Positions 2,867-28,700 are shown, numbered from the stretch's first letter. The stretch is 33,618 nt of DNA from a virus (IMGVR_UViG_3300048598_000369:1-33618), one strand, 5' to 3'. A program made the numbers and translations. The notes: a model not told the origin generated them from the letters alone.

Positions 2867-2997
2867 TTAAATCGCATCAATGACCATGCAGCTGCCTCTC
2901 TTTTTCCGTTTATAACTATTACTTTCTCGTAAGAAGTTAGGCTAAAAATTGCCGATTTAGTACAAACATTTCTCAACTGTTGACTATATGTTAATTC

Positions 2998-3093
2998 TTA
3001 TAAGGTGTTTCTGTGATAGGGCTGTTTTGTGTAGGCAGCTCTGGGGAAAGCGGTAAGCTTTGTCCTCTCCCCAGGCCGCCGGGCTTGCCTTTT
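2998..3093 (+). promoter_or_regulatory. Putative late promoter (TTATAA 2998-3003) followed by a GC-rich structured 5' leader
   Basis: Nested inverted repeats: AGGCA 3033-37/TGCCT 3086-90, CTGGGGA 3041-47/TCCCCAG 3068-74, AAGC 3048-51/GCTT 3057-60. Ends in TTTT just before the protease gene. Confidence 0.5.
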
Positions 3094-3101
3094 CCCCTTA
3101 G

Positions 3102-3983: not shown

Positions 3984-4184
3984 ATGGCTGAGGGAAAACT
4001 GCACGAAGTCAATAATGCGGAAGCTGACGCCGTCATCGAATACGCAAGCAAAGCGATCCCTCATAACGAGATGCTTAGCCGTGTTATCCGTAACATGTAC
4101 AAGCGGATTGTGCAGTTAGAAGCCCAAGTTAAGGACCTACAAGCGAAACCCAAAAAGGTTGCCGCTAAAGCTGGAGGTCCATAA
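3984..4184 (+). CDS. Small coiled-coil hypothetical protein (66 aa) in the head module
   Basis: ATG directly after the protease stop; RIVQLEAQVKDLQ heptads. Confidence 0.7.
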   Translation: MAEGKLHEVNNAEADAVIEYASKAIPHNEMLSRVIRNMYKRIVQLEAQVKDLQAKPKKVAAKAGGP

Positions 4185-4260
4185 TTTATGCTCACTTTTG
4201 TGGGGCTATTAGCGCCAGGACGAACTGGTGTGAACGCAAAACAATGGAGATTGATTTATA

Positions 4261-4704
4261 ATGACTGATTTAACTGGAAAATCTTGGATGTCTATAGGCG
4301 AAACTGACGACCCAAACGCACAAATCGAATCTTTTGAGGTTGCTGCTGCTGTCACTAAAGGCGACCCCGTGTATCTAAGCGCAGACCACAAGATTACTCC
4401 CGCGGCTGCCGCTCAAGACTGCTTAGGTATCGCTGTCAAATCTCAAGCGACAGTCGGTGGACAATGCCCAGTGCTGATTCGTGGGCGAGTCAAGGTGAAG
4501 GCAGGCGGAGTTATTAACCGTGGAAAAGCCGTTTATGGCGCCGATGCTACCAAACGCATTCTTGAATTGTCCGATGCCTCTCAGGCTGTGGACGAGGGCG
4601 GAGCTGCAAAATACACCATTGCAACCTACTTCAACCGCAAACTTGGCTATGCTTTAGAGACAACTGCTCAAGCTGACGACCTACTTTTCATTGAGGTGCG
4701 ATAG
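4261..4704 (+). CDS. Capsid decoration/cement protein (DUF2190-like)
   Basis: FEVAAAVTKGDPVYL, LGIAV, CPVLIRGRVKV, GYALE..LLFIEV pattern; lies immediately upstream of the capsid gene; GGAG RBS. Confidence 0.75.
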   Translation: MTDLTGKSWMSIGETDDPNAQIESFEVAAAVTKGDPVYLSADHKITPAAAAQDCLGIAVKSQATVGGQCPVLIRGRVKVKAGGVINRGKAVYGADATKRILELSDASQAVDEGGAAKYTIATYFNRKLGYALETTAQADDLLFIEVR

Positions 4705-5657
4705 TGAAGCCGAAACTTTACGAGTCATTAATGCAGAAAGATGCGGGATTCAAAGAAGTCATGGAAAAACTCAAGCTGAAAACCGACCATCCCTTCCTAA
4801 AGCGATATTCCGCTTTGGGTGTGAAGGAAGGCTTTTTCAGCGATATGGCAGGCGCTCTTGGCAGAATGCATGATACGATGGTTGATGCTGCTTGGCCTGA
4901 AATGATTGGCCGTAGCATAATCAACGTAATGCCAACCAACGAAGCGATGGAACGCTTTCCGCTGGATCCTGGAACAGTTGCTTACGAATACGCTGAAGGC
5001 GCGGTCACTCGATTAGCAGGCAAAAAAGTCTCGACTGTTGACATCAACGCAAACATCCTAGCGGAATCTTCAGATGAGTGGACAAGAGAATACCTTGAAG
5101 ACGCATCTTGGAACGTAATGGACCGTGCAACCCAGAACATCGGCAACGCTTTAGGCGTCAAAGAAACCGAAAAGATTCTGGCGCTATACACTGCTGTTTC
5201 GGCGGCTGACTTAGCTACTGGCGCAGACCTTGCAGGCGGCGGTACTGTAATGAGTTGGACAAAACTGCTTAGCTTGTGGCATGCTGTTAAGTCTGAGAAG
5301 CGAAGAGCAACTGTTATCGCCCTAAACGATATGCAAGTTGCACAACTTCTCAACGATAGCACTTTCACAAACGCGCAGTCTTTACCATCCGCACAAACCG
5401 ATCTGGAAGCCGGCGTTGTTAGTGGCGCTTTGGGCATGAAGATTGTTTCAAGCCCACTTGTCACCAACGGTGTTGCATTCGCCATCGATACACGTGTTGC
5501 CTCCGCGATGCTTCTGCGCCGAGACGTAACTGTCGAGGACTGGGAAGATGTTAAGAACGGCAAATACGGTGTCAGAGCCACAACCCGCTTTGGCCTGGGC
5601 GTCCTAGATTCCAAAGGCATTGCAAGAATGACAAACATCAAGACAACAATCACTTAA
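4704..5657 (+). CDS. Major capsid protein, HK97 fold
   Basis: 317 aa; EYAEG, WTREYLEDA, GALGMKIVSSPLV and C-terminal YGVRATTRFGLGVLDSKGIARM motifs; GAGGTG RBS; 1-nt overlap with the previous gene. Confidence 0.9.
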   Translation: MKPKLYESLMQKDAGFKEVMEKLKLKTDHPFLKRYSALGVKEGFFSDMAGALGRMHDTMVDAAWPEMIGRSIINVMPTNEAMERFPLDPGTVAYEYAEGAVTRLAGKKVSTVDINANILAESSDEWTREYLEDASWNVMDRATQNIGNALGVKETEKILALYTAVSAADLATGADLAGGGTVMSWTKLLSLWHAVKSEKRRATVIALNDMQVAQLLNDSTFTNAQSLPSAQTDLEAGVVSGALGMKIVSSPLVTNGVAFAIDTRVASAMLLRRDVTVEDWEDVKNGKYGVRATTRFGLGVLDSKGIARMTNIKTTIT

Positions 5658-5673
5658 GCGGCGCATTTGCCCG

Positions 5674-5691
5674 TTTTTCTTCCCTTTTTTT
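5674..5691 (+). terminator. Oligo-T archaeal terminator/attenuator after the capsid gene
   Basis: TTTTTCTTCCCTTTTTTT between the MCP stop and the portal start. Confidence 0.55.
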
Positions 5692-5720
5692 GGGTTATCA
5701 AATCATTCGGGGTTTAACCA

Positions 5721-6923
5721 TTGAGTAGCGTTTACAGAAAAATCCGTGAGGTCCTCTCCTATGTGCCTGTTTCAGGCGTAGCAAAGCCGAATGGTAGAGT
5801 GTTCTTTGACACTTCCTGCATTCCATTAGCAGACGTTATGAAGCTCTATGAGCGTGACCCAACCTGCAAGGCAAGTGTTGACCTTTTAGCCGCTTCCACA
5901 GTTGGAATGGGCTTCTATACTACTGTGGACGAAACCTATGATAAGGCCAAAGAAGCCAAAGCCGCTGTGGATAATTTCTGCGAAGAAATCAACTTGGACG
6001 GTTTGTTAAACGATATGGCTAAACCGCTAATTGGCTGCGGAAACGATTTTTGGCTCAAATTAACTCCTGACAAACTCACCGAGACAATGCGCATGCCCAT
6101 TGACGCCGTGCAACGTATAGGGCTTAGCAGTGTGCCCGACCTAAAGCTTCCTTACAAAGTCATGGGTTATCAACTCAAGAGCATCTATCGCGGCAACGCC
6201 AATCAAGATGGCGAACTAAAGCCAGAAGCGGTTATTCACTGGCGCCTAGACGGCGATATTCCCTCTGGCTACGGCGTTGGATTGCTGCAGGTGCTTTTGC
6301 ACACATTGACCGTTGATTCGGATAAGCGCCCGGCTGTTGCTTGGATGAAAGCCAAAATTGAACGTATAATGCCCAAGATTTTTGAGAAGTATGCGGGACC
6401 TGATGTTTTGGCAATGTTGGAGGGCGTCGATGAGGCAACGGTAAAGTCATTTGAGCAAGCCATCAAGAACCGTGATGAAGAAGGCGCTTGGCTATTCTAC
6501 AACAAAAAAATCGATTTAAAGCCAGTCACGATTGACCCCCGAGCACAGGGCTTTGTTTACTACATCGACCACATCATTAATCAATTCTATCTGGGCTTGG
6601 AAACTCCTCTGCCACGGCTTTTCAGCACTCCAGGCTTTACCGAAGCATCGGCAAGAGCAGCGTTAGACTTGCAGGATATGCTCATAAAACCCGTCCAACG
6701 CTACATTAAACGCCAAGTAGAGCGGGAACTTTTCTTACCCATCATCACTCAAGCTGGGATTGACCCCATAAAGGCTAAGGTGCGCCTAAATTATGGCAGC
6801 CCCGAAACCCCCGAGATGAACTCTGCCGACCTCATTAAAGCTGCTGAAGCTGGACTAATTCGCCAAGAGGAATTCCGCAAGAACGCGGTTAAGTTTGGCT
6901 GGGAACTCTGGGACCTCAATTAA
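5721..6923 (+). CDS. Portal protein
   Basis: 400 aa; LYERDPTCKASVD, GNDFWLK, EAVIHWR...YGVGLL, LGLETP, IKPVQRYIKRQVERELF and LIRQEEFR are portal-typical segments. Confidence 0.85.
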   Translation: MSSVYRKIREVLSYVPVSGVAKPNGRVFFDTSCIPLADVMKLYERDPTCKASVDLLAASTVGMGFYTTVDETYDKAKEAKAAVDNFCEEINLDGLLNDMAKPLIGCGNDFWLKLTPDKLTETMRMPIDAVQRIGLSSVPDLKLPYKVMGYQLKSIYRGNANQDGELKPEAVIHWRLDGDIPSGYGVGLLQVLLHTLTVDSDKRPAVAWMKAKIERIMPKIFEKYAGPDVLAMLEGVDEATVKSFEQAIKNRDEEGAWLFYNKKIDLKPVTIDPRAQGFVYYIDHIINQFYLGLETPLPRLFSTPGFTEASARAALDLQDMLIKPVQRYIKRQVERELFLPIITQAGIDPIKAKVRLNYGSPETPEMNSADLIKAAEAGLIRQEEFRKNAVKFGWELWDLN

Positions 6924-6979
6924 TATCTATAAAAGATGAAAATGGTTTCGATGGTGCAGTCAATTAAACTTCGCAGGTA

Positions 6980-8635
6980 TTACAATGGCCACAATTGAAG
7001 GGCAATTTTTGCCAGTCGTTCGCCTCGTTGAATTATCTCTTTTTCTGTCCATCGGTCAAGTTGTGCTATTTCCCTATTTAGACGTAAACCGCTGTCCTTG
7101 AAGCCTTTGGACATATCCCGTTTTTCGATAAACGGTCTGTTCGAATACTCGGCGTTATACCCTGTTAGCGTAAGGTTACCAAGCGAATGCAAGTATTTCT
7201 TGTAAGTTAATTCCCAATCTTCCCCTAATTCATTTTTCCAAGGATCACTCAGTGTTTGAGGCATTATATGTTCTATCTGAAGGTCTTCGAAATTCACTGT
7301 TTCTTTATTATCTTTAAGTTCTATGCGCATTAAGAGGTATCCAATTGTTTTGGTTCCATACAGTTCTTTTATTCTCAAGTGCTCGCTGAATTCTAAATCA
7401 TCAGGCATTCGTCCGGCTTCTGTTTCTGTCGAAAGCACCTGTTTGAATGAGGTTATGATGTCTGTTTTATCGAGCTTCTGGTATACGGTTGGGAAGAATC
7501 TGTTTAAGAAGTTAGTTGGTACACCACAAACCGCTCTTCTGATTATATAACTTTCAAGAACGCTCAAAAAACCTACAAATTCATCTTTTGATATTTTTTT
7601 CATGAAAAGGTCGTTATATAGATTGAGAAGTAGTGGATAGCTTGTGGTAACGTCCAAGTAGTTCAAGGAGGCAAAATAAGCTCTAATTTCAGGGTCTTTT
7701 TCAGCTTCTGGATTTATAAATCGGTAGTAATACTCGGAGTATTTCGATAAATCCGTGGCATATTCGATAACTTGTTTTTCATCTTTGAAGTTGCCCTCAG
7801 AAAAGGCCTTAACCGAGGAGTAGACTTTATTGTAATTGGGTAGCTTCCCGTTGCGTGCTAAATAATGCCTCAAAAAATCGACAGCCGAACTGTTAAGTCT
7901 TTGCTGCATTGGAAGCCATATTGTGTCATATATCTCCTGTTGATTATTTGGACTAATTTTCATGAATAAATAATTTCTGACCAAATCCGCTTGAGTAAGA
8001 GGTTCCCCTTTTGCATTAAGACTTTCAAAAATGAGGTAGGGGTCATCATCCTTATCGAGACAAATATCAACTATTGAAAACTTGTTAAGGAGTGTATTTT
8101 TAATTTTTTTAATCTGATCTATATCTTGAATTTCAGCGTCAAGTTTGCCTTTAAAATAGTAGTAAGCTTTTGCTATTTTGTGTTCTTTATCAGTTAGCGT
8201 ATCTGGCTTGTTAACAACCGTAGACAGAATCTCACGATCTGCTTGTGTTGGAATAACCTTGTTTTTATCAAGCGATAACTCCGCGTATTTGTTAGTAAGA
8301 TATTGCTCAAAAATTGAATTTTTCAACTCTGATGATTTGTCAATATCTTCAGCTCTTTTTCTTAGAGCGGCTAGAAAAATCGTTGTGGTAACTAGCCTTT
8401 GTTGACCATCGATAACTATATATTTAGAAATACCTGAAGCCGATGAAGGTTCAGGCATGGTAACGAATGACCCAAAGAAGTGAGTTGTCTCCTTCTCTTC
8501 CATTGTATTTGTCAAGTCTGCCCATAGAGTTTCAAGATGTTTGTTATCCCAACTGTATGTTCTCTGAAATAGAGGAATGACAAAGCTTTTGCTACCCTCT
8601 AGGTACTTGAAAATTTGTGTATCATGCGCATCCAT
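6980..8635 (-). CDS. gmrSD: GmrSD-like type IV (modification-dependent) restriction protein, DUF262 + DUF1524/HNH
   Basis: FVIPLFQRTYSW, VIDGQQRL and FESLNAKGEPL (DUF262); IEHIMPQ and LGNLTL...N...SN (His-Me finger). AT-rich and antisense to the virion operon. Confidence 0.88.
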   Translation of the reverse strand: MDAHDTQIFKYLEGSKSFVIPLFQRTYSWDNKHLETLWADLTNTMEEKETTHFFGSFVTMPEPSSASGISKYIVIDGQQRLVTTTIFLAALRKRAEDIDKSSELKNSIFEQYLTNKYAELSLDKNKVIPTQADREILSTVVNKPDTLTDKEHKIAKAYYYFKGKLDAEIQDIDQIKKIKNTLLNKFSIVDICLDKDDDPYLIFESLNAKGEPLTQADLVRNYLFMKISPNNQQEIYDTIWLPMQQRLNSSAVDFLRHYLARNGKLPNYNKVYSSVKAFSEGNFKDEKQVIEYATDLSKYSEYYYRFINPEAEKDPEIRAYFASLNYLDVTTSYPLLLNLYNDLFMKKISKDEFVGFLSVLESYIIRRAVCGVPTNFLNRFFPTVYQKLDKTDIITSFKQVLSTETEAGRMPDDLEFSEHLRIKELYGTKTIGYLLMRIELKDNKETVNFEDLQIEHIMPQTLSDPWKNELGEDWELTYKKYLHSLGNLTLTGYNAEYSNRPFIEKRDMSKGFKDSGLRLNREIAQLDRWTEKEIIQRGERLAKIALQLWPL

Positions 8636-8680
8636 AAGGACACCAACCGCTGACTTACTTACACTACTAAAGCCTTATAG

Positions 8681-8713
8681 TTTTTGTCGTTTTTTACCCA
8701 TTAACGACAAAAA
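8681..8713. repeat. Perfect 11-bp inverted repeat with 11-bp spacer, each arm abutting a TATA-like box
   Basis: TTTTTGTCGTT (8681-91) and AACGACAAAAA (8703-13); CTATAAG follows leftward and TTTAAA follows rightward. Confidence 0.8.
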
Positions 8714-8865
8714 TTTAAACAGTATTACTTATTTTATTTTAAGAACCTATATTTCCTCTTTGGAAACTGATGCTACCTTTTTCTCAGTTAACTGGTTTTG
8801 GCTTATATGTTAAGTCTTTTATGCGGTTCATTCCGTAACCTCAGAATTGCTTGGAGGTTTAATGT

Positions 8866-9255
8866 CTGAGTGAATTTGCGTTACCCGCGTCAGGAAAAGA
8901 AACCTTCGGTTTGAATGGTCAAGTTAGCGAGCGCAAAAAGTTGCTTGCAGATAACGTTGCGACTACTGACGCGGAGCAGTTTAGCAGTTTTTTTGATATG
9001 CGCCTGTTTTCCAAAGCCGTTTTTCAAGCCATCAACTCGGGAAGCTATCCAGTTAAGTACTCGTTTTATGGCGCTATTGACCCTAGCATAAAGTGGGATC
9101 CTTTGCCGAACGGTCAAAATCAAGTTGTACCGGCTGGTGCTTCTCAGTTGCAAGCGCTTAGTGATTCTTATGCGTTTATCAAAGTTGGCTTTCAAAACAA
9201 CGTGGCAGGCAGCGCAAGCGTCTTTCAGGTACTTGTGGAGGCCAAGAACCGTTGA
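8866..9255 (+). CDS. Small beta-rich protein, probably virion-associated; likely CTG start at 8866 (track start 8911)
   Basis: GGAGGT at 8853-58 lies 7 nt before an in-frame CTG AGT GAA; the frame is open to 9255 and overlaps the next gene. Confidence 0.7.
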   Translation: MSEFALPASGKETFGLNGQVSERKKLLADNVATTDAEQFSSFFDMRLFSKAVFQAINSGSYPVKYSFYGAIDPSIKWDPLPNGQNQVVPAGASQLQALSDSYAFIKVGFQNNVAGSASVFQVLVEAKNR

Positions 9256-10454
9256 GTATGAACATGATGGGCATGGATCAATCCAAATTTGGCGGCAACT
9301 TTACTAAACATGCGCGTCTTGCAAATGCTCAAGAAGTGGTAATTAGCAATTTTCAATCAGGTCACGGGTGGGTAAAAGAGACAACAAGCGGCACAATGAC
9401 AGATGAAGCAACCGATTTTATTCGGGGAAATCAATGTCTAAAACTTGTTGGTCCTTCGGATGGGAACACACCACGCCTAAAATTAACTCTGGGTACACTT
9501 CTCGACATTACGGGCAAAGTTATCAAAATTATCTTGAAGGTTGATAACCCAGCGGCTCTCGTGAATTTACAGCTTGCCTGGTCGAGTGACGGTTTTGCTG
9601 CAAATTGGGTTCTTGTTAACTTCAAAGCGTTTGCGCCCAGCTTGCTCCCGGCTAATGAATGGTTCATCTTGACAGTTACGCCCAGCATGGTTACTGAAAC
9701 TCAGGGTTCAACAAACTTGACCGCGATTAACGCTTTCAGGTTCTATATGAGAGCAAACAATGGCGTGTCAACTACTCTTTGGCTAGGCGGTTTAAGCTAC
9801 CAATTAAATCCTGCCGAGGCAGCCTGCGTTCTAACATTCGACGACGGATTTGTTAGCCAATACACTGAAGCAAGAAAGAAAATGGACACCTACAATTTCC
9901 TAGGCGTCGCCTACATCATTAACGAGTACATTGATGTTAACCCATCATACATGACTTTGGCGCAACTGCTAGAATTGCAGAATTTTCACGGCTGGGATAT
10001 TGGCGGTCACGCAAGCGGACCTTTCGATGCGTATGGCGATTTACAGTTGGAAGCCAAACTTGCAAGCATCAAAGAATACCTCTTAAGAAACGGCCTTGCG
10101 AAAGGCGCGGAGCATTTAGCGTATCCCAACGGCGTGCACAACCCCACAATCAGACACTTAACAAGCAAATACTTCACTGCCCGAACCGTAACCACTGCCT
10201 CAGAAGTTAATCCGCCATCCGATTACATGCGGCTTAAAGTGTTCATGGTTACTAACACGACAACAACCGGCGCGATCGCAAATGCCGTTACCAACGCCTT
10301 AAACAATAAGGAACTTTTGATTTTGGTATTCCACAAAATAGTTACAAGCCCAGCGGTTGAGACCGAATTTAGCATTGCAAACTTTTCCACAGTCATTGAT
10401 AACATCAAGACTCAGGGCATCAAAGTTAAAACTTTAAGCGACATTTTCGGGTGA
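9252..10454 (+). CDS. Polysaccharide deacetylase (NodB/CE4) with N-terminal carbohydrate-binding-like beta-sandwich
   Basis: LTFDDG, GWDIGGH, HLAYPNG and LILVFHKI CE4 motifs; translationally coupled on both sides within the structural operon. Confidence 0.88.
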   Translation: MSMNMMGMDQSKFGGNFTKHARLANAQEVVISNFQSGHGWVKETTSGTMTDEATDFIRGNQCLKLVGPSDGNTPRLKLTLGTLLDITGKVIKIILKVDNPAALVNLQLAWSSDGFAANWVLVNFKAFAPSLLPANEWFILTVTPSMVTETQGSTNLTAINAFRFYMRANNGVSTTLWLGGLSYQLNPAEAACVLTFDDGFVSQYTEARKKMDTYNFLGVAYIINEYIDVNPSYMTLAQLLELQNFHGWDIGGHASGPFDAYGDLQLEAKLASIKEYLLRNGLAKGAEHLAYPNGVHNPTIRHLTSKYFTARTVTTASEVNPPSDYMRLKVFMVTNTTTTGAIANAVTNALNNKELLILVFHKIVTSPAVETEFSIANFSTVIDNIKTQGIKVKTLSDIFG

Positions 10455-10816
10455 CCAAAAAAGTGGCTTCTGTTGGTGTTGAGGACGTCCGAGATGTTAT
10501 TAATGTTGGGGATTCGGATATTCCCGACGCCAAAATAGAGAAGATGATTCAACGTGCTGCTGTCACGGTTGGGCTTGAAACCTCAAAAACTATAGATGCC
10601 CAAAACTGTACGGAGGCACAAAAAGAAGCCATAACCATTTTAGCTGCTGTTTATGCGGTCTGTTTCTTATCTGGCGGTTCGGCTATAGGGTTAAACTTCA
10701 CAGTAGGCGACCTTAACGTTACTCAATCATCGAAGGTGCCAAGCCTAGACGTGCTTCAAGCTGAATGTGCTCGCTTGATTGAAAAGCTAAAGACGCCCTA
10801 CATTGGGAGGGCTTAG
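10451..10816 (+). CDS. Head-tail adaptor (HK97 gp6/SPP1 gp15-like)
   Basis: About 120 aa; VEDVRDVI...IPDAKIEKMIQRA...AITILAA helices, then an FTVGDLNVT hairpin; position in the operon. Confidence 0.75.
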   Translation: MTKKVASVGVEDVRDVINVGDSDIPDAKIEKMIQRAAVTVGLETSKTIDAQNCTEAQKEAITILAAVYAVCFLSGGSAIGLNFTVGDLNVTQSSKVPSLDVLQAECARLIEKLKTPYIGRA

Positions 10817-10819
10817 CCC

Positions 10820-12403
10820 ATGGGTACTGTTCCTGACGCATATTTTCAGTTCATCATGCATTATGCGCCCTTCGTTTACGTGATACCGACTGCAATCGGC
10901 TCTGATGCTGCGGCTGGACAAAAAAACGTTACAGTTACAACGGGAGCCAATTTTGAATCAGGTTATCCGGTGCAGATTAGCGACGGCCTAAACAGTGAGT
11001 GGAACTTGGTTTCCTCGGTCGTGGGCAATGTCGTGACTATGCAAAACAATCTGCAACACACTTACCACGCGGCTGCTGGAAAAGTTGAAGGACCTGAACC
11101 TGCCTATGGGCGCGGCGTCATGTCTGCGTCTTTTGCTCTTGACTTCTTAGTCCAAGCCTATTCCGCTTCACAGTTTGCAGGCCAAAAAACTGCTATTCTC
11201 GCCAAAATCGTGGAGTTAGCCGATTGGATTCTAACCCAGCAATGCGTAAACGCGGCAAAGAAGGCTTACGGCGGCTTTGCAAGCGCTGAAGAAAGTACAC
11301 AGTATTGGAGTATTGACGCAGGCCGTTGCATTCTCGCTCTACTTTCAGCTTACCAGGTCACAGGCGATTCTCGATATTTGGCTGCGGCTAAGCTTTGTGG
11401 TGGTACTTTCCTTAAAACTGTTCAAGACGAGCAAGTTTATGGCGGGTTTGCCAGGGCTGTTGCAATAGATGATAACTGGCTCTATGAGCTTGATACTGAA
11501 TCCCTTTATTGCTTAATTGGTCTCAAACGGCTTATTGACGTTGACCCTTCAAATGCTGCCTTGTACCGGGGGATTGCCGATAAAGCAATTGCTTTTCTGC
11601 GCAGTGGGGTTGAGAATCTTTGGCTCTACTTTGAACCCGCAGATAGCCAATGGCATCGTGTTGGCTTAACTGAGAACGAAATTTACGATGATTCATTGGG
11701 CTTTGCGTTGCTTGGGCTGTACATTTACGAGGGATGGAGCGACACATGCAGAAACGTTTACAACAGCCTTCAAGGTATCAAAGCGCCTGCCGAGTTTCCA
11801 GCCTACAATCCTGCAATCTGTTGGCCTGGTTATATTGACGTTAAAAACCGTTCTCCTGCATGTGCCTATTATGATGATGTTACAAGCGGAATCCTTTGGC
11901 GAATCCGCGCCGCCCATGACAAACCAAGCCTGTACTTTAGCGTTCTAGTTGCCGAAAAATACCAAGCTGAGTTTATGAATTGGGGGCCTCTTTTTACGGA
12001 TTATAGCCCGATTACGCCTGCCAAAGCAATGGCAAACGTCAGTTGGCTTGCTCAACTCTTCTTAAACTACGTGAACCCTGCCTCGCCTTTTGCCCGAATC
12101 TTGACAAGTAAAGGAGAAAACTTGACGCTTTATCCGCTAAAAGGCGCCGGTGCAAGTTCCAGTTACGGCAATGCTCTAACCGTTAAAGCTGTTGTTGCTG
12201 CAAGTACCGCAGAGGAGCTTATTTTCGAAGTCGGCTATACACAGCAAGACTACATTACCGTTTATGGGCTTGCTTCTCTTCGTATGCATGACAAGGTTAG
12301 GCGTGCAGGCGTTGATTATGAAGTGCAGACGGTGCAGCCTTTTCTTGTTAATGGCGATCCAGAGTTTTTCAAGTGTGCCTGTCGGAGGTTAATCAATGGC
12401 TAA
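10820..12403 (+). CDS. Fusion: (alpha/alpha)6-barrel enzyme-like domain plus C-terminal head-closure (stopper)-like domain
   Basis: LADWILTQQ..YGGF and FLKTVQ..YGGF repeats, AYQVTGDSRYLAAA (six-hairpin/prenyltransferase-like). The C-terminal ~100 aa (GENLTLY..VKAVV..ITVYG..LRMHDKVRRAGVDYEVQTV..FFKCACRR) fits a stopper. Sits between adaptor and terminator. Confidence 0.7.
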   Translation: MGTVPDAYFQFIMHYAPFVYVIPTAIGSDAAAGQKNVTVTTGANFESGYPVQISDGLNSEWNLVSSVVGNVVTMQNNLQHTYHAAAGKVEGPEPAYGRGVMSASFALDFLVQAYSASQFAGQKTAILAKIVELADWILTQQCVNAAKKAYGGFASAEESTQYWSIDAGRCILALLSAYQVTGDSRYLAAAKLCGGTFLKTVQDEQVYGGFARAVAIDDNWLYELDTESLYCLIGLKRLIDVDPSNAALYRGIADKAIAFLRSGVENLWLYFEPADSQWHRVGLTENEIYDDSLGFALLGLYIYEGWSDTCRNVYNSLQGIKAPAEFPAYNPAICWPGYIDVKNRSPACAYYDDVTSGILWRIRAAHDKPSLYFSVLVAEKYQAEFMNWGPLFTDYSPITPAKAMANVSWLAQLFLNYVNPASPFARILTSKGENLTLYPLKGAGASSSYGNALTVKAVVAASTAEELIFEVGYTQQDYITVYGLASLRMHDKVRRAGVDYEVQTVQPFLVNGDPEFFKCACRRLING

Positions 12404-13367
12404 CATTGAAGACCCCAGCATTACCCTCGCCCGGCTCTTGAACACCTATCTGCGGGTAATTACTGATAGCGGCGGGCTTGCCAAAGTTTTTGTTAACCAG
12501 GAATGGTTCAACAATGAATTATCCAAAGCTTACGATGGGCAAGTTACCGTTGGGTTAAAAGAAAGTGTCGATCGGAAAGTCAATATGAGCGGCAGTATTC
12601 GACAGAAGGTTTACTTGCATCGAGTAAACGTTTGGGTTCAAGACAAACCCGAACAGACTACCCGACCAATGCGAGGCAAAATCTGTCTTGACCTTAACCG
12701 CGTCATCCATGAAAAACGCTACCATCCCAACGATACATTATATTATTTTATTGGGGTTGGGCAGCCAACAGAAACACACAAGGCGTATCATGCAGCATCA
12801 GCCTCAGAGTTAGCGCCTTCCGTTGCGGGTTGGACTGAGCTTTTAGACTTGGAGTATCAAAAAATTTGGTACTCTGACGACAACTATTTCGTTAAATCTG
12901 TGAGCGTTGCTTCGCAGCGGGCACTTATGCTTTTCCGCTTCAAAATTAGCTCTGAAAAAGCAGTGGCTAAACAAGCTGTTCTCAGTTTTGAGGGCTACGG
13001 AACCGCTCCCGGAGGCAACGGCGTAACAATCAAAGCTTGGAACTTTACCGCAGCCGCTTGGCAAAACTCCGTTTCGGGAACAAGCGGAGCCGACGAAACC
13101 TTAAGCCTAACATTGGCGACGCCTCAAGATTTCCTCGATTCAGACGGCTATGTGTACATGCTTGCAGAAACAACAAACGCCAGCAACGGGGCAACGGCTG
13201 CCGTTTTGAACTGCGATTACATACAGTGCGTTTGCACGGTCGAGGGCATAACTCATGTTGACATTGCTTCCTTCCGCGATATGGATACAGTGACCGTTAA
13301 GCCATTCATTTGGCGTACTGAGTTCACTGTAAAATCATGGTTGCTTGAGAATATTCAAACAACATAG
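12396..13367 (+). CDS. Tail terminator-like protein with an inserted beta-sandwich domain
   Basis: N-terminal part (LARLLNTYL..VTVG..HRVNVWV..MRGKICLDLNRVI) and C-terminal part (IASFRDMD..IWRTEFTVKSW) match the terminator topology and flank a ~170-aa beta-rich insert; lies before the tail tube. Confidence 0.6.
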   Translation: MANIEDPSITLARLLNTYLRVITDSGGLAKVFVNQEWFNNELSKAYDGQVTVGLKESVDRKVNMSGSIRQKVYLHRVNVWVQDKPEQTTRPMRGKICLDLNRVIHEKRYHPNDTLYYFIGVGQPTETHKAYHAASASELAPSVAGWTELLDLEYQKIWYSDDNYFVKSVSVASQRALMLFRFKISSEKAVAKQAVLSFEGYGTAPGGNGVTIKAWNFTAAAWQNSVSGTSGADETLSLTLATPQDFLDSDGYVYMLAETTNASNGATAAVLNCDYIQCVCTVEGITHVDIASFRDMDTVTVKPFIWRTEFTVKSWLLENIQTT

Positions 13368-13382
13368 GAAAGGTGAGAAAAA

Positions 13383-13553
13383 ATGGACGTACCCGAATTT
13401 AATAAAAAAATTCAAGAAACTTTTGTTGTAGTGGCAACTTGGCCTGAATGGTTACAAGCAATCGTTTTGGAAGACATCTTAGCAGCCGTTGAAAATAGAG
13501 TTCGCACCATGGACCTGATTCAACAACACAGCCTAGTAACTAAAAAAGACTAA
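13383..13553 (+). CDS. Small helical hypothetical protein (56 aa), not in ORF track
   Basis: MDVPEFNKKIQETFVVVATWPEWLQAIVLEDILAAVENRVRTMDLIQQHSLVTKKD; AGGTGA RBS at 13371-76; fills the gap between genes. Confidence 0.7.
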   Translation: MDVPEFNKKIQETFVVVATWPEWLQAIVLEDILAAVENRVRTMDLIQQHSLVTKKD

Positions 13554-13575
13554 TGGAAAAAAGGATTGAAAAAAC

Positions 13576-14439
13576 ATGGTTGAAACCTATAGCATCGACC
13601 AAACGCATCTCTTCTATATCGAAGAGGCAACACCCGGAACAACACCAAGTAACCCAGCAATGCTTAGCGTGCCAATTGAAGACATTAACCCCGGCTTTGA
13701 CCCGGGCAACTTGCTATTAAGGGCTGCTGGAAGCTCTGATTTAATGGCTATCAAAAAAGGGCTATGGAAGCCAGAATTAAACTTTAAGTACATTCTACCA
13801 TCATCTTCGCCCATCAACTTTCTGCAATACGCAAACAAGACCCTTGATAAAGCGCTGAGCATGCAAGTAATTTACCACAAAAGCATTTTCAGCACAGCAA
13901 CCGACATCTTAAGCTTAATTTACACTTACATGCGGGTAAACCGTGTTACCGTCTCCTGCGAAATTGACGATGTTGTGAGAGTTCAAGTTAATGCGCTTGG
14001 GCAGGGCTTAACCACTGGCGCAGCAAAAATCAGCGGTGCAACCTATACCGATTACACTGGCGCAGTAGCATTTAACGAAACAGACCTACAAATTGATACA
14101 GTCGCAAACTCAAGAGTCGTGGGCTGGCGTTTTGACATCAACAATAACGCAAGGCAAGTTCCAGTTTTACGGGCAACAAACGGGCATCTTGCAAAATACG
14201 TTCCCTTTGGCAGCCGCAGCTTATCCGGTGAAGTACGCTTTGAATTTGAATCAAAACAAGAACTAGATGATGCCATAGCAGACACCGAAAGAACCCTTAG
14301 ATTTGGGTTAGGCGGAACAAATTACGCTGAATTTACCGGGTGCAAATGGTCCTCAATTCAAACTGAAAAACTTCTGGAAGACTTAATCAGCGTAAGAGCC
14401 GCTTTTGACGCTAAATCAATGACTATAGCGGCAAGCTAA
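13576..14439 (+). CDS. Major tail tube protein
   Basis: YIEEATPGTTP start, VNRVTVSC, GWRFDINNN and GSRSLSGEVRFEF motifs; upstream of the chaperone. No sheath gene, so siphovirus-type. Confidence 0.85.
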   Translation: MVETYSIDQTHLFYIEEATPGTTPSNPAMLSVPIEDINPGFDPGNLLLRAAGSSDLMAIKKGLWKPELNFKYILPSSSPINFLQYANKTLDKALSMQVIYHKSIFSTATDILSLIYTYMRVNRVTVSCEIDDVVRVQVNALGQGLTTGAAKISGATYTDYTGAVAFNETDLQIDTVANSRVVGWRFDINNNARQVPVLRATNGHLAKYVPFGSRSLSGEVRFEFESKQELDDAIADTERTLRFGLGGTNYAEFTGCKWSSIQTEKLLEDLISVRAAFDAKSMTIAAS

Positions 14440-14445
14440 GCAGAG

Positions 14446-14898
14446 TTGGATCCTATGAGAGAAGAAAAATTAGAAATTGGCAACGAGTACGGCGAAGAGT
14501 TCAAAGGAACCTACACTTTCAAAGAAATGTTCTGGGCTAAAAAGAACCGCATCATCCAAAAACACACCCAATATAGCGGCGTCACTGGCGAAGTTGTAAA
14601 AAGCGATTACATAGCCATCCAAGCCGAATCAATCATGGGCAGCCTTCACGGTCAACCCGCAAACAAACCTATCTCTCTTGAACGCTTGCTCAGTGAAACC
14701 GAAGGCATCCCGGGTGAACTTGGCGAAAAGTTTGCTCGAATCGTTGAAAGCCTTAACAGCGTTGGCAAGGCAGATTTGCGTTTTTTATTAGCGCAATTAA
14801 GCGAAAAAGACCGCACCGAGCTATTACAGAGTTTAGGCTATGCAAAGAGTTCGGTTGGACACCCAACCAGCTTGCCAGACAACCCGCCAAAACAGTAA
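14446..14898 (+). CDS. Tail assembly chaperone (gpG-like, zero-frame product)
   Basis: Follows the tail tube and contains a slippery heptamer. Confidence 0.8.
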   Translation: MDPMREEKLEIGNEYGEEFKGTYTFKEMFWAKKNRIIQKHTQYSGVTGEVVKSDYIAIQAESIMGSLHGQPANKPISLERLLSETEGIPGELGEKFARIVESLNSVGKADLRFLLAQLSEKDRTELLQSLGYAKSSVGHPTSLPDNPPKQ

Positions 14899-14975
14899 CC
14901 GAATTTATTGTTATCTTAAAAGAAATTGACCGAGAAATTGAGGAAGAAAACAAAAAGGGAGCACCTAAGAAATAA
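14446..14975 (+). CDS. Tail assembly chaperone, -1 frameshifted form (gpGT-like)
   Basis: After 14787 the -1 frame reads ISAIKRKRPHRAITEFRLCKEFGWTPNQLARQPAKTVTEFIVILKEIDREIEEENKKGAPKK. Its TAA (14973-75) overlaps the next ATG. Confidence 0.85.
14781..14787 (+). other. Programmed -1 ribosomal frameshift slippery site T TTT TTA
   Basis: X XXY YYZ heptamer in the correct phase (CGT TTT TTA). Confidence 0.85.
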
Positions 14976-15337
14976 TGGAAGTTTCGCTTAATGTGTCTGG
15001 CTTTGAAGGCGTGAAGGAAGCGTTAAGTAGATTTGACGCCGCCATGATTGCCCAGGTACACGATAAACTTGTTGAATGGTGCGAAGCCGTTAGGACTTTA
15101 GCGCAGTCTGCCGCTCCCGTCCGCACTGGCTATCTAAGAGACCACATTTATGCTGAGGTTAACGATTGGATTGGCAATGTCGGTTCGGAAGCCGCCTATA
15201 GCGTTTTTGTTGAGCAAGGTACCCGTTACATGAAAGCGCAGCCTTTTCTTTTTCCAGCAATTCAGGCGCAACTGCCACAGCTTGAAGCGTTTCTAATTGA
15301 AGCAATTAATCAGGCAAAGGAGTCCACAGGGCTTTGA
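14975..15337 (+). CDS. HK97 gp10-like neck/tail-completion protein
   Basis: APVRTGYLRDHI and YSVFVEQGTRYMKAQPFLFPA signature. Confidence 0.9.
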   Translation: MEVSLNVSGFEGVKEALSRFDAAMIAQVHDKLVEWCEAVRTLAQSAAPVRTGYLRDHIYAEVNDWIGNVGSEAAYSVFVEQGTRYMKAQPFLFPAIQAQLPQLEAFLIEAINQAKESTGL

Positions 15338-15987
15338 GCAGTCCATCATTAAGTGAAATATCCATTGCAGTACGTGCAGAAAATAAGGCTTCAAACACTT
15401 TTAGGCAAGTAGCTCTTGACGTTGCAAGCTTGGGCGCCGCGTTTGGCGTCTTAACAAATGACCAAGTAAAGTTTGTTTCAATCGCATTTACGGCTGTGCG
15501 TGTAGTGGAAAGCTTAGGCGCTATTCTGAAAGCCACATCGGTCGCGCATTACTTAGAAGCGGCTGCGTGTTGGGTAGCAAATACGGCAATGACCGCGTTA
15601 AACATTAGCTTTGCCACTTTCTTGGCCTTAACAGGCGTTGGCATAGCTGCAATAGTGACGGCAGCCGCAGTTATGGCAAGCTTTGCTTCAAGCATGAATA
15701 ACGCCAGTGCATCAGTGCAGAACTTTAATTCGGCAGCCTCAGAAATGCCAACTTCATCAAGAAAAATAACCCGGTCAGGCGATAGCATAATTTATCAAAC
15801 AAGAGCAGCAACAGACCAAAACGGCAGCGCTCAACCATACCCTGGGACGTTGCGTAATTCCGAGCCGCGAGCACCAAACATTAAGCATTCAACAACCTTA
15901 ACCCATTCAACGCAGACTAGCAGACCAGGAACGCTAAAAGAACATAGCGATAATTTGCTGTTGTACCGTAAGGGCGTGGAAACGTGA
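15334..15987 (+). CDS. Very short tape-measure-like protein (217 aa)
   Basis: ISIAVRAENKAS..F N-terminus typical of TMPs; Ala-rich amphipathic/hydrophobic helices; lies between chaperone/gp10 and hub. Confidence 0.7.
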   Translation: MSSPSLSEISIAVRAENKASNTFRQVALDVASLGAAFGVLTNDQVKFVSIAFTAVRVVESLGAILKATSVAHYLEAAACWVANTAMTALNISFATFLALTGVGIAAIVTAAAVMASFASSMNNASASVQNFNSAASEMPTSSRKITRSGDSIIYQTRAATDQNGSAQPYPGTLRNSEPRAPNIKHSTTLTHSTQTSRPGTLKEHSDNLLLYRKGVET

Positions 15988-17591
15988 GCGTCGCTGATCC
16001 AGCCTTCACAATCTATTTAGGACCTACGGCAGGCGCAATTTCTCAGTCTGACGTTAAAGAATGCCTCATACATTTAGGCGGCACCAAAGAAGTAAGCAGC
16101 TGGACTCTGAAACTCTACAATTTTAACGGCAAATATACCCAGAGTGGCGCTCAACCGATCGCTTTAGGGGAAGATGGCTATATTGACTTGGGTAGAGGCG
16201 GCACGGTTCCCAGACTTATAACAACTAGAACTGAAGGCATCCGCTATGAATCAACGCCACAAGAAAACTATATCATAATTTCGGGTAGGTGTTGGGGAGA
16301 AAAACTTTTCAGATACAAATTCACCGGCACTTTTCTAGCCTACAAAGGCGAAGCAATAATCATACGTTTGCTTGATTATTACGCAGGCTTGAGTCATAAT
16401 CGTTCAGGCACTGAACTTGTGGAAACAACTGACACAACCTTTAACGAAATGGTAAATGATGACAGTGACGTTTTTGAGGTGATTCAAAAAGTTGCTGAGG
16501 CAAGCGATAAAGCAGGCGTCATCGGCTACGATTTCCGTGTGGCGCCTGATGGAAAATTTGAGTTTTTCCAAAGAGGCTCAAAAACTTGCAGTGTAAACTT
16601 AATTGACAAAATTGAAAATAGCAAAATCGAGCTAGACATTTTTAGGGTCAGAAATAAAGTAACCATTAAGGGCGCTCCATTAAGAAGCTCTCCCTATGAT
16701 AAAGACGAAACAGTGGAAAGCTTAACGCCTGCAAGCGGCACTTGGTATTGTGTAGCAGGCGACAGCCAAAGCGTTGATGGCACAGTTCTTTTTGGCAATG
16801 CTTCCGGTAGCATCAAAAACAGTACAGGCGTCAACTATTTTGGAGCTGAACAGCTCGTTTTCAATACTCCAGTTGATTGTGATACTTACCCGATTCTGTT
16901 TCTTGCATTATTAAGAGGCTCAGCTTTGACTGGTCCTTTTCATATAGTAATTTTTGATAGCGGTGGGCATCAGGCCAGTAAAACAGTGGAAAATGTTGAT
17001 TCGATTGCTTGGTCTGTCTTTAAGCTAAATGTTGGCTTAAAATATAATGATGAATGGGCAATTTCAGCAGGCATTACTTTTGACTGGAAACAGGTAACGG
17101 CGGTGCGTGTAATTGGTTATACTGATGCTTCACATACGGCAAGTTATTTCTGGATAGGTCAATGCTACTTTACAGGCGCCAGATACTATTCAAACCAACA
17201 AGACGCCGCCAGCCAAGCAATCTATGGACTACGAGAATTAGTCGATATTGACGAGGAACTTTATGGCGATGATGAATGTGAACTCAGGGCAAAAGCGCTT
17301 TTAGCCTACTATAAAGACCCTTCAACAAACCTTGAAGTTTCAAGCACAGTTCTGGATTACGGAAGCACTCCGCCCAACCATGGAGAAATGATACCAATCA
17401 CTTTGCCAAATGAGGGCATATCAGCCGTAGATTTCCGCATCAACTGGGCAGAATACCACTATTTAGCAGACACCAACATTTTAGAAATAACCCTAAACTT
17501 GGGAAAAGAACCCCAATTACTGGCTGACTACGTGTATGCTTTGAAGGCTAAAACAAGCGCAAATACCCGTTACAAAATTTCAACACGCTAA
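15984..17591 (+). CDS. Baseplate hub/Tal-like tail-tip protein with inserted carbohydrate-binding-like domain
   Basis: WTLKLYN..G, IISGRCW, GYDFRVAPDGKFEFF, VRNKVTIKG, SQAIYGLRE and EITLNLG hub motifs; internal beta-sandwich (about residues 240-400). Confidence 0.75.
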   Translation: MSVADPAFTIYLGPTAGAISQSDVKECLIHLGGTKEVSSWTLKLYNFNGKYTQSGAQPIALGEDGYIDLGRGGTVPRLITTRTEGIRYESTPQENYIIISGRCWGEKLFRYKFTGTFLAYKGEAIIIRLLDYYAGLSHNRSGTELVETTDTTFNEMVNDDSDVFEVIQKVAEASDKAGVIGYDFRVAPDGKFEFFQRGSKTCSVNLIDKIENSKIELDIFRVRNKVTIKGAPLRSSPYDKDETVESLTPASGTWYCVAGDSQSVDGTVLFGNASGSIKNSTGVNYFGAEQLVFNTPVDCDTYPILFLALLRGSALTGPFHIVIFDSGGHQASKTVENVDSIAWSVFKLNVGLKYNDEWAISAGITFDWKQVTAVRVIGYTDASHTASYFWIGQCYFTGARYYSNQQDAASQAIYGLRELVDIDEELYGDDECELRAKALLAYYKDPSTNLEVSSTVLDYGSTPPNHGEMIPITLPNEGISAVDFRINWAEYHYLADTNILEITLNLGKEPQLLADYVYALKAKTSANTRYKISTR

Positions 17592-17739
17592 ACTTCCTAA
17601 AGTCTTAAAAATAAACAAGACAGATAACCATTTGGTGAGGAGAGCCTGTGAAGCAGTTTAGAGGACATCCTTTCCCTTTCCAGAGGATATGAAGTTGATG
17701 CTTTTTAGATTGACGGAGTAGGAACAGACTCACCATAAT

Positions 17740-18429
17740 TTAGGGTAACCCAAGAAATGTTTTGGTAACATCGGTTATTATTACTTCATTATTACCATTT
17801 AATTGGTAAGCAAGAACCATTTTGTAACGATTTCCATTTGCATCAAAGAAGCGCAAATCATTATTTATGAAGTCAGTCCATAGCTGATTAATTGTTTTTC
17901 CTTCATCAAGGTTATTGCATATACCTGCAACTTCTATGGTTACCCATGTCTTATTATCAAAAGACGGGTTAACTTGTATCCATGAATGATCAACAATCCC
18001 TGTTTCGTAATAGCCAACTTTGATTACTCTAAATGGAATATCTTGAGCAACACAAAACGCTGCATAAACCCAAACATGCTCACCGCAAGCGCCCAGACCA
18101 TTTTTCAAAACCTGGGTGACATTTTCATAGGGTGGTCTATCGTATGACCAGTTAATGTGTTTGCTTTCCCAAACTAATCCTTCTGTAAAATTCATCTTTC
18201 CTTCTGGAAGCCAGTTTTTTAATTCTTTTTGCGTTGCATTAGAATAAAGGTTCCGCAAGTTAGCTCCATCTTTTGCGATTTTATCCCAAACAAGTCTCTG
18301 GTTTTCTTTAGCAGAGTCTTTAATAATAAAAGAAATTGCAATGCCCATTATAGCTGTTAATATTAAGGCGGTTATCACTACAGCGATTATAACTGTAAGT
18401 ATAACCTGTTTAGTTGGCATAATTATCAT
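17740..18429 (-). CDS. Membrane-anchored transglutaminase-like (papain-fold) protein
   Basis: N-terminal hydrophobic helix; GACGE (Cys), DHSWIQV (His) and WVTIE (acidic) triad arrangement. Confidence 0.8.
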   Translation of the reverse strand: MIIMPTKQVILTVIIAVVITALILTAIMGIAISFIIKDSAKENQRLVWDKIAKDGANLRNLYSNATQKELKNWLPEGKMNFTEGLVWESKHINWSYDRPPYENVTQVLKNGLGACGEHVWVYAAFCVAQDIPFRVIKVGYYETGIVDHSWIQVNPSFDNKTWVTIEVAGICNNLDEGKTINQLWTDFINNDLRFFDANGNRYKMVLAYQLNGNNEVIITDVTKTFLGLP

Positions 18430-18559
18430 TTGGTAATATGTAGTTAAAAATTAATCCTTTTTTGCTCACTTTAACAATAGTCTCCACTGTCCTCCTTTGT
18501 CTTTGCAGCAAAGATGTTATAATCAAAAACAGTTATGTTGCTTTCTGGAGAGCATTAAC

Positions 18560-18844
18560 ATGGGAAAAACTGTTCCTACATACAGAATGGCGATTGAAGC
18601 TGAAATAGCAAACTGGAAAAGCTTCCGAGACGCATTAACAAGTGAAGAAGAAAAAGCTGCGTTTGACCAAGTTATGGATTTATGCCGAGTTCAAGCTATG
18701 GCTGGAAGCAGCGCCTGCAACCCTATTCTTTTCGAGCCAATGGTAATGAGTGTGCTTTTGGGTCAACAGAAAATGATTAGAACACTTCAAAGAAAAATCG
18801 ACACCTTATTAGTAGCTAATTTACCGATAGAAAAAGATGAGTGA
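18560..18844 (+). CDS. Small helical archaeal protein (MGKTVPTYR family; resembles the PolB2-associated arCOG07300-type protein)
   Basis: MGKTVPTYRMAIEAEI..W..FRDAL..AFD..M..NP..FEPMVMSVLL; GGAG RBS before ATG 18560. The family name is from recall. Confidence 0.7.
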   Translation: MGKTVPTYRMAIEAEIANWKSFRDALTSEEEKAAFDQVMDLCRVQAMAGSSACNPILFEPMVMSVLLGQQKMIRTLQRKIDTLLVANLPIEKDE

Positions 18845-18948
18845 CAATGGGGCAAGTTTCTGTTTTCCACCCGTTGCTATAGACGTTTCTGAGAATAACT
18901 TTGGCTAACGGGAAGTAGCACGAATTTAACATTATCAGCACTTAGTTT

Positions 18949-18955
18949 TTTATAT
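18949..18955 (+). promoter_or_regulatory. TATA box for a leaderless tbp transcript
   Basis: TTTATAT ends 21 nt before ATG 18977. Confidence 0.55.
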
Positions 18956-18976
18956 CTGTACCCAGAAATAAGATGC

Positions 18977-19525
18977 ATGCCCTCTTACATAGAACCGATA
19001 ATTGTTAATGTCATCGCTTCTAGCAGGGTATCCTCTTTTATTGACGTTGAAGCATTAACAGAGAAGCTTGTTTGGGCAGAGTATAACCCAGAGGTTTTTC
19101 CCGGATTAATTCTAAAAAGACGAGGGAAACCTACTATGATCATGTTTGCAGGTGGCAAAATATCAAGCCATGGGGGAAAATCTGAGACGTCTGCAAAAGA
19201 CTCGATTTTGAAAATGTTTAAGGAACTAAAAACTCTCAACTGCATTGACCAAAACGCCACTTTGGAAGAAATCAAGATCGTAAACATAGTAGCAACGGCT
19301 AGTTTGGGTTGCGATCTGGACCTTGAAAGTGTCGTTAAAAATGTAAATAATGTAATTTATGAACCCGAGCAATTTCCAGGCCTTATTTTTAGAGACCTCA
19401 ATAACAAAGTTGTAAGCCTTATTTTTTCTAATGGTAAACTCAATTTAGTAGGTGCAAAAAGTAGTAAGAGTGTTAATGACTCGTTTAATAAAGTGAGACT
19501 AACCCTCAACAAATACTGTATTTAA
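18977..19525 (+). CDS. tbp: TATA-box-binding protein (divergent)
   Basis: Two TBP repeats: IVNVIAS..EYNPEVFPGLI..MFAGGKI..GGKS and IVNIVAT..YEPEQFPGLIFR..LIFSNGKL..GAKS. Confidence 0.95.
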   Translation: MPSYIEPIIVNVIASSRVSSFIDVEALTEKLVWAEYNPEVFPGLILKRRGKPTMIMFAGGKISSHGGKSETSAKDSILKMFKELKTLNCIDQNATLEEIKIVNIVATASLGCDLDLESVVKNVNNVIYEPEQFPGLIFRDLNNKVVSLIFSNGKLNLVGAKSSKSVNDSFNKVRLTLNKYCI

Positions 19526-26170: not shown

Positions 26171-26250
26171 CTATGAGATAAGACCATATGTCAAGGGTTA
26201 GTTCATAAGATTTGTGGTTTTTCACTATCAATAACCTTGTTTAAAGCAGC

Positions 26251-28671: not shown

Positions 28672-28700
28672 TTCTCTAAATTTACAAAGTGTTACGCCCC

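Follow-up and report, generated by a model that had tools for sequence, protein, structure and literature searches.

An (alpha/alpha)6 barrel fused to the head-closure domain in a group of Bathyarchaeia-associated head-tailed viruses

Described neck proteins and the fusion in the window

The described head-closure proteins (stoppers), i.e. those of Pam3 (8hdr_A), Pa193 (9b42_A), XM1 (7kjk), SPP1 (gp16; 7z4w and 2kca), lambda (8k37) and a gene transfer agent (GTA; 6tba), are 100-135 amino acids (aa) long and carry no enzyme-fold domain. Here, we describe a gene for a 527-aa protein in the virus record IMGVR_UViG_3300048598_000369, the whole 33,618 bases of which are referred to below as the window. 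Residues 419-527 of this protein share the fold (best Z 12.4-8.7), the size and the gene position of the known stoppers at an identity of 8-23%, whereas most of the preceding residues are predicted to form an (alpha/alpha)6 barrel, a fold of six-hairpin glycosidases.

Additional proteins or domains at or near the neck have been described in other viruses. In the short-tailed phage phi29, the neck is encircled by the pre-neck appendage gp12, which binds and cuts wall polymers, but these appendages are separate beta-helix trimers and not a stopper domain, and the host is a bacterium. Staphylococcus phage 812 possesses a hexameric stopper with an extra outer domain (gp97, 8q01) as well as a terminator with an extra domain, as found here; however, the outer domain is a small beta-sandwich for which the accessible part of the report describes no enzyme pocket, and the virus is a contractile-tailed one of bacteria (PMC12886913). 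In the archaeal short-tailed virus HFTV1, the turret protein gp31 has a module that binds glycans and resembles a deacetylase; it lies at a distance from the tail tip and is proposed to serve an initial, reversible capture. Unlike the protein described here, gp31 is a separate trimer on capsid hexamers, has another fold and is not fused to a core neck protein (PMC12494034, accessible text). Stoppers with an added beta-sandwich and glycan-directed virion decorations are thus already known, while none with an enzyme-fold barrel was found in the accessible parts of these reports. Nor was an enzyme-fold stopper described in the freely available literature covered by our search; members could still be listed in supplements outside its scope, i.e. 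those on bioRxiv and that of PMC13573593.

Two published tables do contain such genes under other names. Gene 14 of the Bathyarchaeia head-tailed provirus JAAKEZ010000002_pro is the fusion of one of our related loci (L033; the prefix L denotes our own locus numbers) and is tabled as a GlcNAc 2-epimerase (Xu et al. 2024, PMC11705971, tables). By its length and labels, JAGTQZ010000001_22 (462 aa) is taken as another member of the group; the tables of Duan et al. 2024 (PMC10848311) give it as a head completion protein and add a match to the Pfam C5-epimerase. The main texts of both papers contain no mention of stopper or closure.

The stopper domain and its conserved fusion

AlphaFold2 applied to the 527-aa protein with a 116-row alignment gave a model (mean predicted local distance difference test, pLDDT, 94.1; predicted template modelling score, pTM, 0.92) in which twelve helices within residues 6-416 (the first at 6-15) are followed by a short one (423-431) and then by a beta domain (433-523). 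A first-pass annotation of the same DNA had predicted a stopper beta-barrel at the C-terminus, and the structure agrees: when the last 109 residues were folded alone (pLDDT 86.4), their best match was the Pam3 neck chain 8hdr_A (Z 12.4, rmsd 3.3, 98 aligned residues), followed by Pa193 (9b42_A; Z 11.0), XM1 (7kjk; 10.6) and phage 812 (8q01_S; 9.9), with T4 gp14, the T1 stopper 9l0e, SPP1 7z4w, lambda 8k37 and GTA 6tba also matched. The top rows of Foldseek are nearly all phage neck chains, and in the ESM Atlas the domain is matched by the Phage_attach (TM 0.71) and Phage_HCP clusters.

Since a profile of the stopper alignment found no neck protein among the PDB sequences up to E 10, the stopper assignment rests on structure. 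The window protein itself had no PHROG match; among 66 stopper-domain rows, 36 matched PHROG 939 and four PHROG 161 (head closure). The position of the gene between adaptor and terminator/tube also fits a stopper. No other stopper gene was found in the module, and the complete provirus table in PMC11705971 names no other closure gene. The fusion is likely the sole head-closure protein of this virus group. Stoppers keep the packaged DNA inside until the tail has bound, and a loop modelled here with low confidence (residues 465-471) is a candidate for this gating. A complex prediction with four copies of the stopper domain scored 0.02 against a mark of 0.42 and gives no evidence either way.

The fusion is widespread among relatives. 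A search of 8,000 candidates yielded 605 relatives, and the best 120 listed are 426-589 aa long with 81-100% query coverage. Among 153 loci with the barrel motif, the stopper part was present in 151 and a gene in the terminator slot in 145, and both parts lay on one open reading frame (ORF) in 149 of the 153 sources with a match (154 searched including the window; a loose count with a few partial ORFs). Loci were also collected by way of the adaptor gene, because this avoids selecting on the barrel: among the best 80 of 187 loci, some of which share contigs with the earlier ones, 75 carried the intact fusion, three were ended by contig ends, two were frameshifted and none had a lone stopper. 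These 75 loci and the occurrence of the fusion in hundreds of relatives rule out a lost stop codon or an assembly artefact, the former having been named by the first-pass annotation as what could undo its proposal. Median dN/dS values from independent pairs were 0.094 for the insert described below (22 pairs), 0.097 for the barrel (23) and 0.092 for the stopper (24); judged from these ratios, all three domains are under purifying selection. Identity to L074 is 86% in the barrel and 70% in the stopper, with the barrel as the better conserved of the two.

A plain 112-aa stopper family exists as well (28-36% identity). It follows the same adaptor family in L239 (5001-6814) and L240 (4090-5900), and the unfused state therefore works too. 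The next genes in both loci are one of 106 aa and a separate one of 382 aa with weak helical-barrel signs, and for the 382-aa ORF of L239 kinship with the present barrel was unsupported (HHalign 1.2%, no Pfam match, squalene cyclase E 0.025). In another locus (L049, 9923-12400), an 825-aa ORF joins most of the fusion in frame to the terminase, likely owing to a deletion or misassembly. No match was found among 50,697 GenBank phage records.

The barrel, its pocket and its relatives

The best structural match of the barrel is CPF_2247 of glycoside hydrolase family 126 (GH126; 3ren_B, Z 28.6, rmsd 3.0, 302 aligned residues, 15% identity), and Foldseek agrees on the barrel (E 1.5e-7). Further matches are the cellobiose epimerase 5zig_A (Z 27.8), 8h1k_A (Z 26.6), PssZ (Z 23.0), dextran dextrinase and relatives of GH15, GH76, GH88/105 and GH8 (Z 21-27). 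The first-pass annotation had spoken of a domain of ~400 aa with this fold; the fold stands, while the size comes to ~345 aa once the insert is removed. This insert, a small beta domain that had been placed at about residues 25-90, is real but optional, and spans residues 21-91. It gave a weak match to the K1-lyase Rider family PF24149 (E 0.062) and turns up in numerous other long proteins. Since hub proteins with an extension also contain it in viruses of this group (L096, L106, L110, L140 and L142), we regard it as a mobile virion-surface module.

Conservation was counted over 246 distinct fusion proteins and over a wider set of 29 diverse barrels, which includes stopper-less ones of ~25-30% identity. 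In (alpha/alpha)6 barrels the active site lies at the starts of the inner helices, and the near-invariant acids and aromatics of the present barrel fall at or just before these starts. W278, Y350, Y351 and D352 are found in all 246 fusion proteins, R280, D166, D290, D291 and W388 in 245 each, R169, W335 and Y338 in 244 each and E227 in 237. In the wider set W278, Y350, Y351 and D352 are again invariant, and R280, D291, Y338 and W388 are kept in at least 90%. The acids first singled out, D165 and the YDD motifs, need correction in part: residue 165 is Ile and the conserved Asp is D166, whereas YYD352 is indeed invariant.

In GH76 the catalytic Asp-Asp lies on the second inner helix; the DD found here (residues 290-291) opens the fourth, and the profile matches to GH76 (best E 4.5e-7) span only the repeated helix pair. 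The defining residues of GH126 are Glu84, Asp136, Tyr194, Arg139 and Tyr307 (PMC7479077, accessible text). GH126 has seven conserved sequence regions (CSRs), with the general acid Glu84, shared with GH8/GH48, in CSR-1 and Asp136 and Arg139 in CSR-3. The likeness to GH126 (CPF_2247, 3REN; PssZ, 6r2m) and the clan-related GH8/GH48 consists of the best structural match, a D-x-x-R motif that recalls Asp136/Arg139 and the presence of some free relatives in polysaccharide synthesis clusters, but the barrel appears to lack a Glu84-like acid and possesses its own invariant set, i.e. D291 and YYD352. A 29-row barrel profile found 34 chains up to E 1, and 3REN was not among them. The R of D-x-x-R is lost in stopper-less relatives, and an acid at residue 93 is conserved in the viral group only. 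We consider the barrel family a candidate new carbohydrate-active enzyme family.

Two other enzyme types were weighed. Class II terpene cyclases (squalene-hopene type) carry a DxDD motif, and neither DxDD nor DDxxD/E was matched in the window protein; residue 353 is Asp in only 24 of the 246 fusion proteins. A barrel that resembles a terpene cyclase or prenyltransferase and binds or alters archaeal isoprenoid lipids, one of the two possibilities first proposed, would fit the two QW-like repeats, which are present as described (W136-F153 and F197-F210, with Q141 and Q202 conserved at 95% or more) and end in GGF, not GxW; helix-loop repeats of this kind also match GH76, pectate lyase and LanC chains. 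Squalene-type cyclases are also among the best 50 structural matches (Z 21-21.6); however, they rank 46, 47 and 50, 7 Z units under the glycosidase, and the gene context of relatives points to sugars. Such a lipid-directed role is thus extremely unlikely, and the fold ranking and gene context favour the other possibility, a six-hairpin glycosidase fold. AGE/cellobiose 2-epimerases use two catalytic histidines, and no histidine is conserved at 95% or more among the 246 fusion proteins (H279 is kept in 216). A sugar epimerase or isomerase of this type is therefore very unlikely, despite the matches to 5zig_A and 8h1k_A and the automatic labels in the tables of PMC11705971 and PMC10848311.

A second lineage of Bathyarchaeia viruses (L158, P0138 and P0287-P0293) has a family of 710-1159 aa in this place: in L158, a 965-aa protein is encoded at 1613-4510, between adaptor and terminator, and its C-terminus is a related stopper (HHalign 96.9%; PF05521 in 7/8 members). 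A weak match to the six-hairpin glycosidase family PF17389 occurs in four of eight members (best E 7e-4, under the cut-off), a sign of another likely six-hairpin module, and the profile of this lineage found nothing in the PDB. An internal slot is empty in three of the eight, filled by a levanase-type beta-sandwich in two (4b1l, E 6e-7 for L158) and by the barrel of the window in two; one more, truncated member has the tail end of the barrel in the slot. The 4b1l chain is a CBM66 binding module, and the barrel therefore swaps with a likely sugar-binding module. In a barrel tree of 44 rows, read as unrooted, the second-lineage barrels lie apart from the group of the window across a branch with 100/100 support, and fused and unfused barrels mix.

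Stopper-less forms of the barrel exist as well, some within large multidomain proteins and others in proteins whose ends resemble signal or membrane segments. An alignment of free barrels retrieved 20 metagenome loci, six of them viral fusions and 14 stopper-less; a free barrel of the bacterial type had no match in plasmids. Three of the stopper-less loci (L252, 5695-7173; L253, 5170-7131; L254), from two independent contexts, also encode a GT2 glycosyltransferase and a UDP-GlcNAc 2-epimerase, which makes their barrels, from gene content, a candidate new family of polysaccharide-trimming glycosidases. This setting recalls PssZ of GH126, an enzyme that breaks down a ManNAc/Gal polymer whose synthesis involves the glycosyltransferase PssC (PMC7479077, accessible text).

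Proposed role, gene neighbourhood and implications

We lean towards reading the fusion as a neck collar of six barrels for first capture on host glycans. Both folds are encoded by a single ORF, intact and conserved, which has the adaptor gene before it and tail genes after it. By analogy with solved necks, six copies would assemble into a ring that joins the dodecameric adaptor to the tail terminator. The N-terminus of a stopper lies outside the ring, and with barrels of ~50 Å and a ring of ~65 Å radius (rough sizes) six would fit. The barrel probably stays uncut and points outward, since the stopper N-terminus is on the outside and the joint, which is short and conserved (Y417 and P420 at 95% or more), was modelled with confidence (pLDDT 89-95 across residues 411-440).

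The same joint argues against a barrel that acts inside the cell or at release, e.g. by envelope loosening or glycan editing, where the fusion would tie dose and timing to assembly and the barrel may be cut off. Some free barrels, whose ends look like signal or membrane segments, could be enzymes of the host envelope, and the separate barrel-like gene after the plain stopper in L239 and L240 would also suit such an action. However, no flexible or low-confidence linker is seen, and six copies per virion would be a poor dosing of a lysis enzyme, which makes this quite improbable.

In a glycan-capturing collar, the pocket formed by D166/R169, E227, W278/R280, D290/D291, W335/Y338, Y350/Y351/D352 and W388 would bind a sugar polymer, most likely archaeal S-layer or capsule glycans, possibly containing amino sugars. 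Capture, and possibly trimming, of surface sugars would then precede engagement of the short tail; glycan-first capture by an archaeal virion has been proposed as a model for the HFTV1 turrets (PMC12494034, accessible text). Further context for this role comes from the exchange of the barrel with a levanase-type module in the second lineage, from the sugar clusters around some free barrels and from the tail genes: where the terminase lies downstream, hub and terminase are separated by just 0.7-1.4 kb of small ORFs in 36 of 38 loci, and hence no separate tail-fibre gene is found there. The least certain step is that D291 and D352 form a catalytic pair, by which the collar would cut as well as bind; given a glycan-binding pocket, the odds that this pair cleaves are about even.

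Alternatively, the barrel could be a dead enzyme fold that braces the neck as a structural buttress and has no ligand. No known catalytic set was matched, the link between barrel and stopper is rigid (pTM 0.92), and neck proteins of phage 812 have outer domains with structural roles (PMC12886913, accessible text). On the other hand, the most conserved residues are acids and aromatics at inner-helix starts that are common to free-standing relatives, the slot of the second lineage, being empty or filled by a beta-sandwich or the barrel, fits a swappable ligand module better than a brace, and a plain 112-aa stopper functions with the same adaptor family. A mere buttress is therefore rather unlikely.

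Several observations weigh against the glycan-capturing collar. No family passes the Pfam cut-off for the barrel of the window (best C5-epim_C, E 8.9e-5), and profile matches to solved enzymes span only the repeated helix pair. By helix counting, the first inner helix appears to begin (G99-S102) with neither a Glu nor any other acid, whereas GH126 and GH8 keep their general acid there. Since this acid is apparently missing, as are a DxDD motif and a fixed His, the barrel was filed in no family and, from its residues, would work like a six-hairpin glycosidase at most. D166 is substituted in 6 of the 28 aligned barrels covering the position, and R169, E227 and D290 are kept only in the viral group. 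Six of the 14 stopper-less loci adjoin purF without a sugar cluster, and five have neither marker. As for the virion, tape measures follow a rule of ~1.5 Å per residue, and a tape measure of 217 aa puts the neck ~30 nm from the tail tip, so that the collar would help only in side-on capture. Receptor binding could in truth be the task of the hub, in which an extension that is long and variable (527-1188 aa) is common. Finally, nothing was found in the literature on Bathyarchaeia surface glycans, and this record contains no terminase; this copy is a fragment or remnant, with the fusion gene intact, and possibly yields no virions.

It is attractive to imagine, though we consider it doubtful, that Bathyarchaeia viruses use the stopper as a modular docking post for glycan cassettes recruited more than once; that the barrel is the first of an unclassified family of glycoside hydrolases, with D291/D352 as its catalytic pair, which also serves bacterial amino-sugar polysaccharide operons; and that six active neck glycosidases let the virion bind and walk through the host glycan coat, replacing tail fibres.

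The window comprises the whole virus record, classed as linear and ~40% complete. Its head-tail module spans 3102-17591 (Table 1), with genes for a protease-like protein, a cement protein, the HK97 capsid protein, the portal slot, a variable slot, the adaptor and the barrel-stopper fusion, followed by the likely terminator, the tail tube, a chaperone slot, an HK97 gp10-like gene, the short tape measure and the hub. Of the HK97 capsid, portal, terminase and tail tube that mark Caudoviricetes, the window has the capsid, the tube and the portal slot but no terminase. Since the named relatives come almost entirely from Bathyarchaeia genomes, we infer this class as host.

Table 1. Features of the window and of the fusion protein, with coordinates counted from the first base of the window
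Feature	Position	Strand	Basis or remark
HK97-fold major capsid protein	4704-5657	+	PF05065, E 2.1e-8
Portal protein	5721-6923	+	Relative L015 weakly matches PF04860 (E 0.0031); same slot is portal in Table S5 of PMC11705971
GmrSD (type IV restriction) gene	6980-8635	-	Opposite to the virion operon; low GC (0.36-0.38); between portal and adaptor
Polysaccharide deacetylase-like gene	9252-10454	+	Variable slot before adaptor; PF01522, E 1.2e-4, under cut-off
Head-tail adaptor	10451-10816	+	PHROG 541, E 0.0099; same slot is head-tail adaptor in Table S5 of PMC11705971
Barrel-stopper fusion gene, 527 aa	10820-12403	+	ATG start, no internal stop
First (alpha/alpha)6 barrel helix, residues 1-20	10820-10879	+	DSSP H6-15; structural matches begin at residue 1
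Optional inserted beta domain, residues 21-91	10880-11092	+	In 81/149 fused ORFs; absent from ~460-aa forms
(alpha/alpha)6 six-hairpin barrel body, residues 92-418	11093-12073	+	Structural matches
D166-x-x-R169	11315-11326	+	Start of second inner helix; resembles GH126 Asp136/Arg139, putative equivalence by helix counting
D290-D291	11687-11692	+	Start of fourth inner helix; D291 kept in stopper-less relatives too; candidate catalytic or sugar-binding acid
Y350-Y351-D352	11867-11875	+	246/246 fused and 29/29 diverse barrels; candidate catalytic or sugar-binding site
Stopper (head-closure) domain, residues 419-527	12074-12403	+	Structural matches to phage neck chains
Likely tail terminator with ~170-aa insertion	12396-13367	+	Putative role from position; overlaps fusion stop
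Tail tube protein	13576-14439	+	PF18906, E 5.4e-15
Short tape measure-like protein, 217 aa	15334-15987	+	Position; tape measure protein in Table S5 of PMC11705971
Tail hub-like protein	15984-17591	+	PF24032, E 0.0035; last virion gene of this copy
TBP gene	18977-19525		
Restriction-modification pair	19522-26170		
Integrase	31688-33118		Perhaps of another element

The slot before the adaptor is often filled by large genes in related loci. The deacetylase-like gene found there in the window occurs in one of the 153 loci and had no sequence match to HFTV1 gp31; from its sequence, its product is possibly a second glycan-directed virion protein. The terminator-slot gene, which had no Pfam match, is the downstream neighbour of the fusion in 137 of the 145 loci scored. 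Its relatives are mostly ~328 aa with the ~170-aa insertion, others being 152-159 aa without it, and the insertion-bearing form may represent a second decorated neck protein. Relatives of the tape measure-like protein are mostly 170-310 aa long. The virion module ends after the hub, and the rest of the window (17591-33618), in which a primase-like gene is also present, resembles host or island DNA; no attachment repeats or tRNA were found in the window.

A gene transfer agent or domesticated cluster was considered in view of the missing terminase, the short tape measure and the several copies per host. For the group, this is ruled out by a terminase within 10 kb in 62 of the 153 related loci, often just after the hub, where the window switches to unrelated genes, and by a published provirus with terminase and integrase (PMC11705971, accessible part).

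The same neck-tail module is paired with different head modules (L103, L104, L010, L134 and L158), some of which have an encapsulin-like capsid protein (PF04454, E 1.5e-47, L104, 5049-5933). Several proviruses of the group can reside in single Bathyarchaeia genomes, i.e. four loci (L001, L004, L026 and L027) in one assembly and six (L009, L018, L019, L031, L033 and L035) in another, and one chromosome (G002) has four full-length barrel matches.

In published tables the fusion gene goes under the wrong label of a metabolic epimerase. Few virion parts are as small and as constrained as stoppers, and the barrel fused here is three times their size; a fusion of this kind that is fixed and, in hundreds of genomes, subject to purifying selection would mean that the core of the neck is able to take part in host recognition. 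A copy is present, with a terminase, in the genome of the cultured Bathyarchaeum tardum (L069), and induction and cryo-electron microscopy are therefore thinkable. The barrel would be a probe for Bathyarchaeia surface glycans and the fusion a handle on how viruses of this abundant, barely cultured class of sediment archaea meet their hosts.

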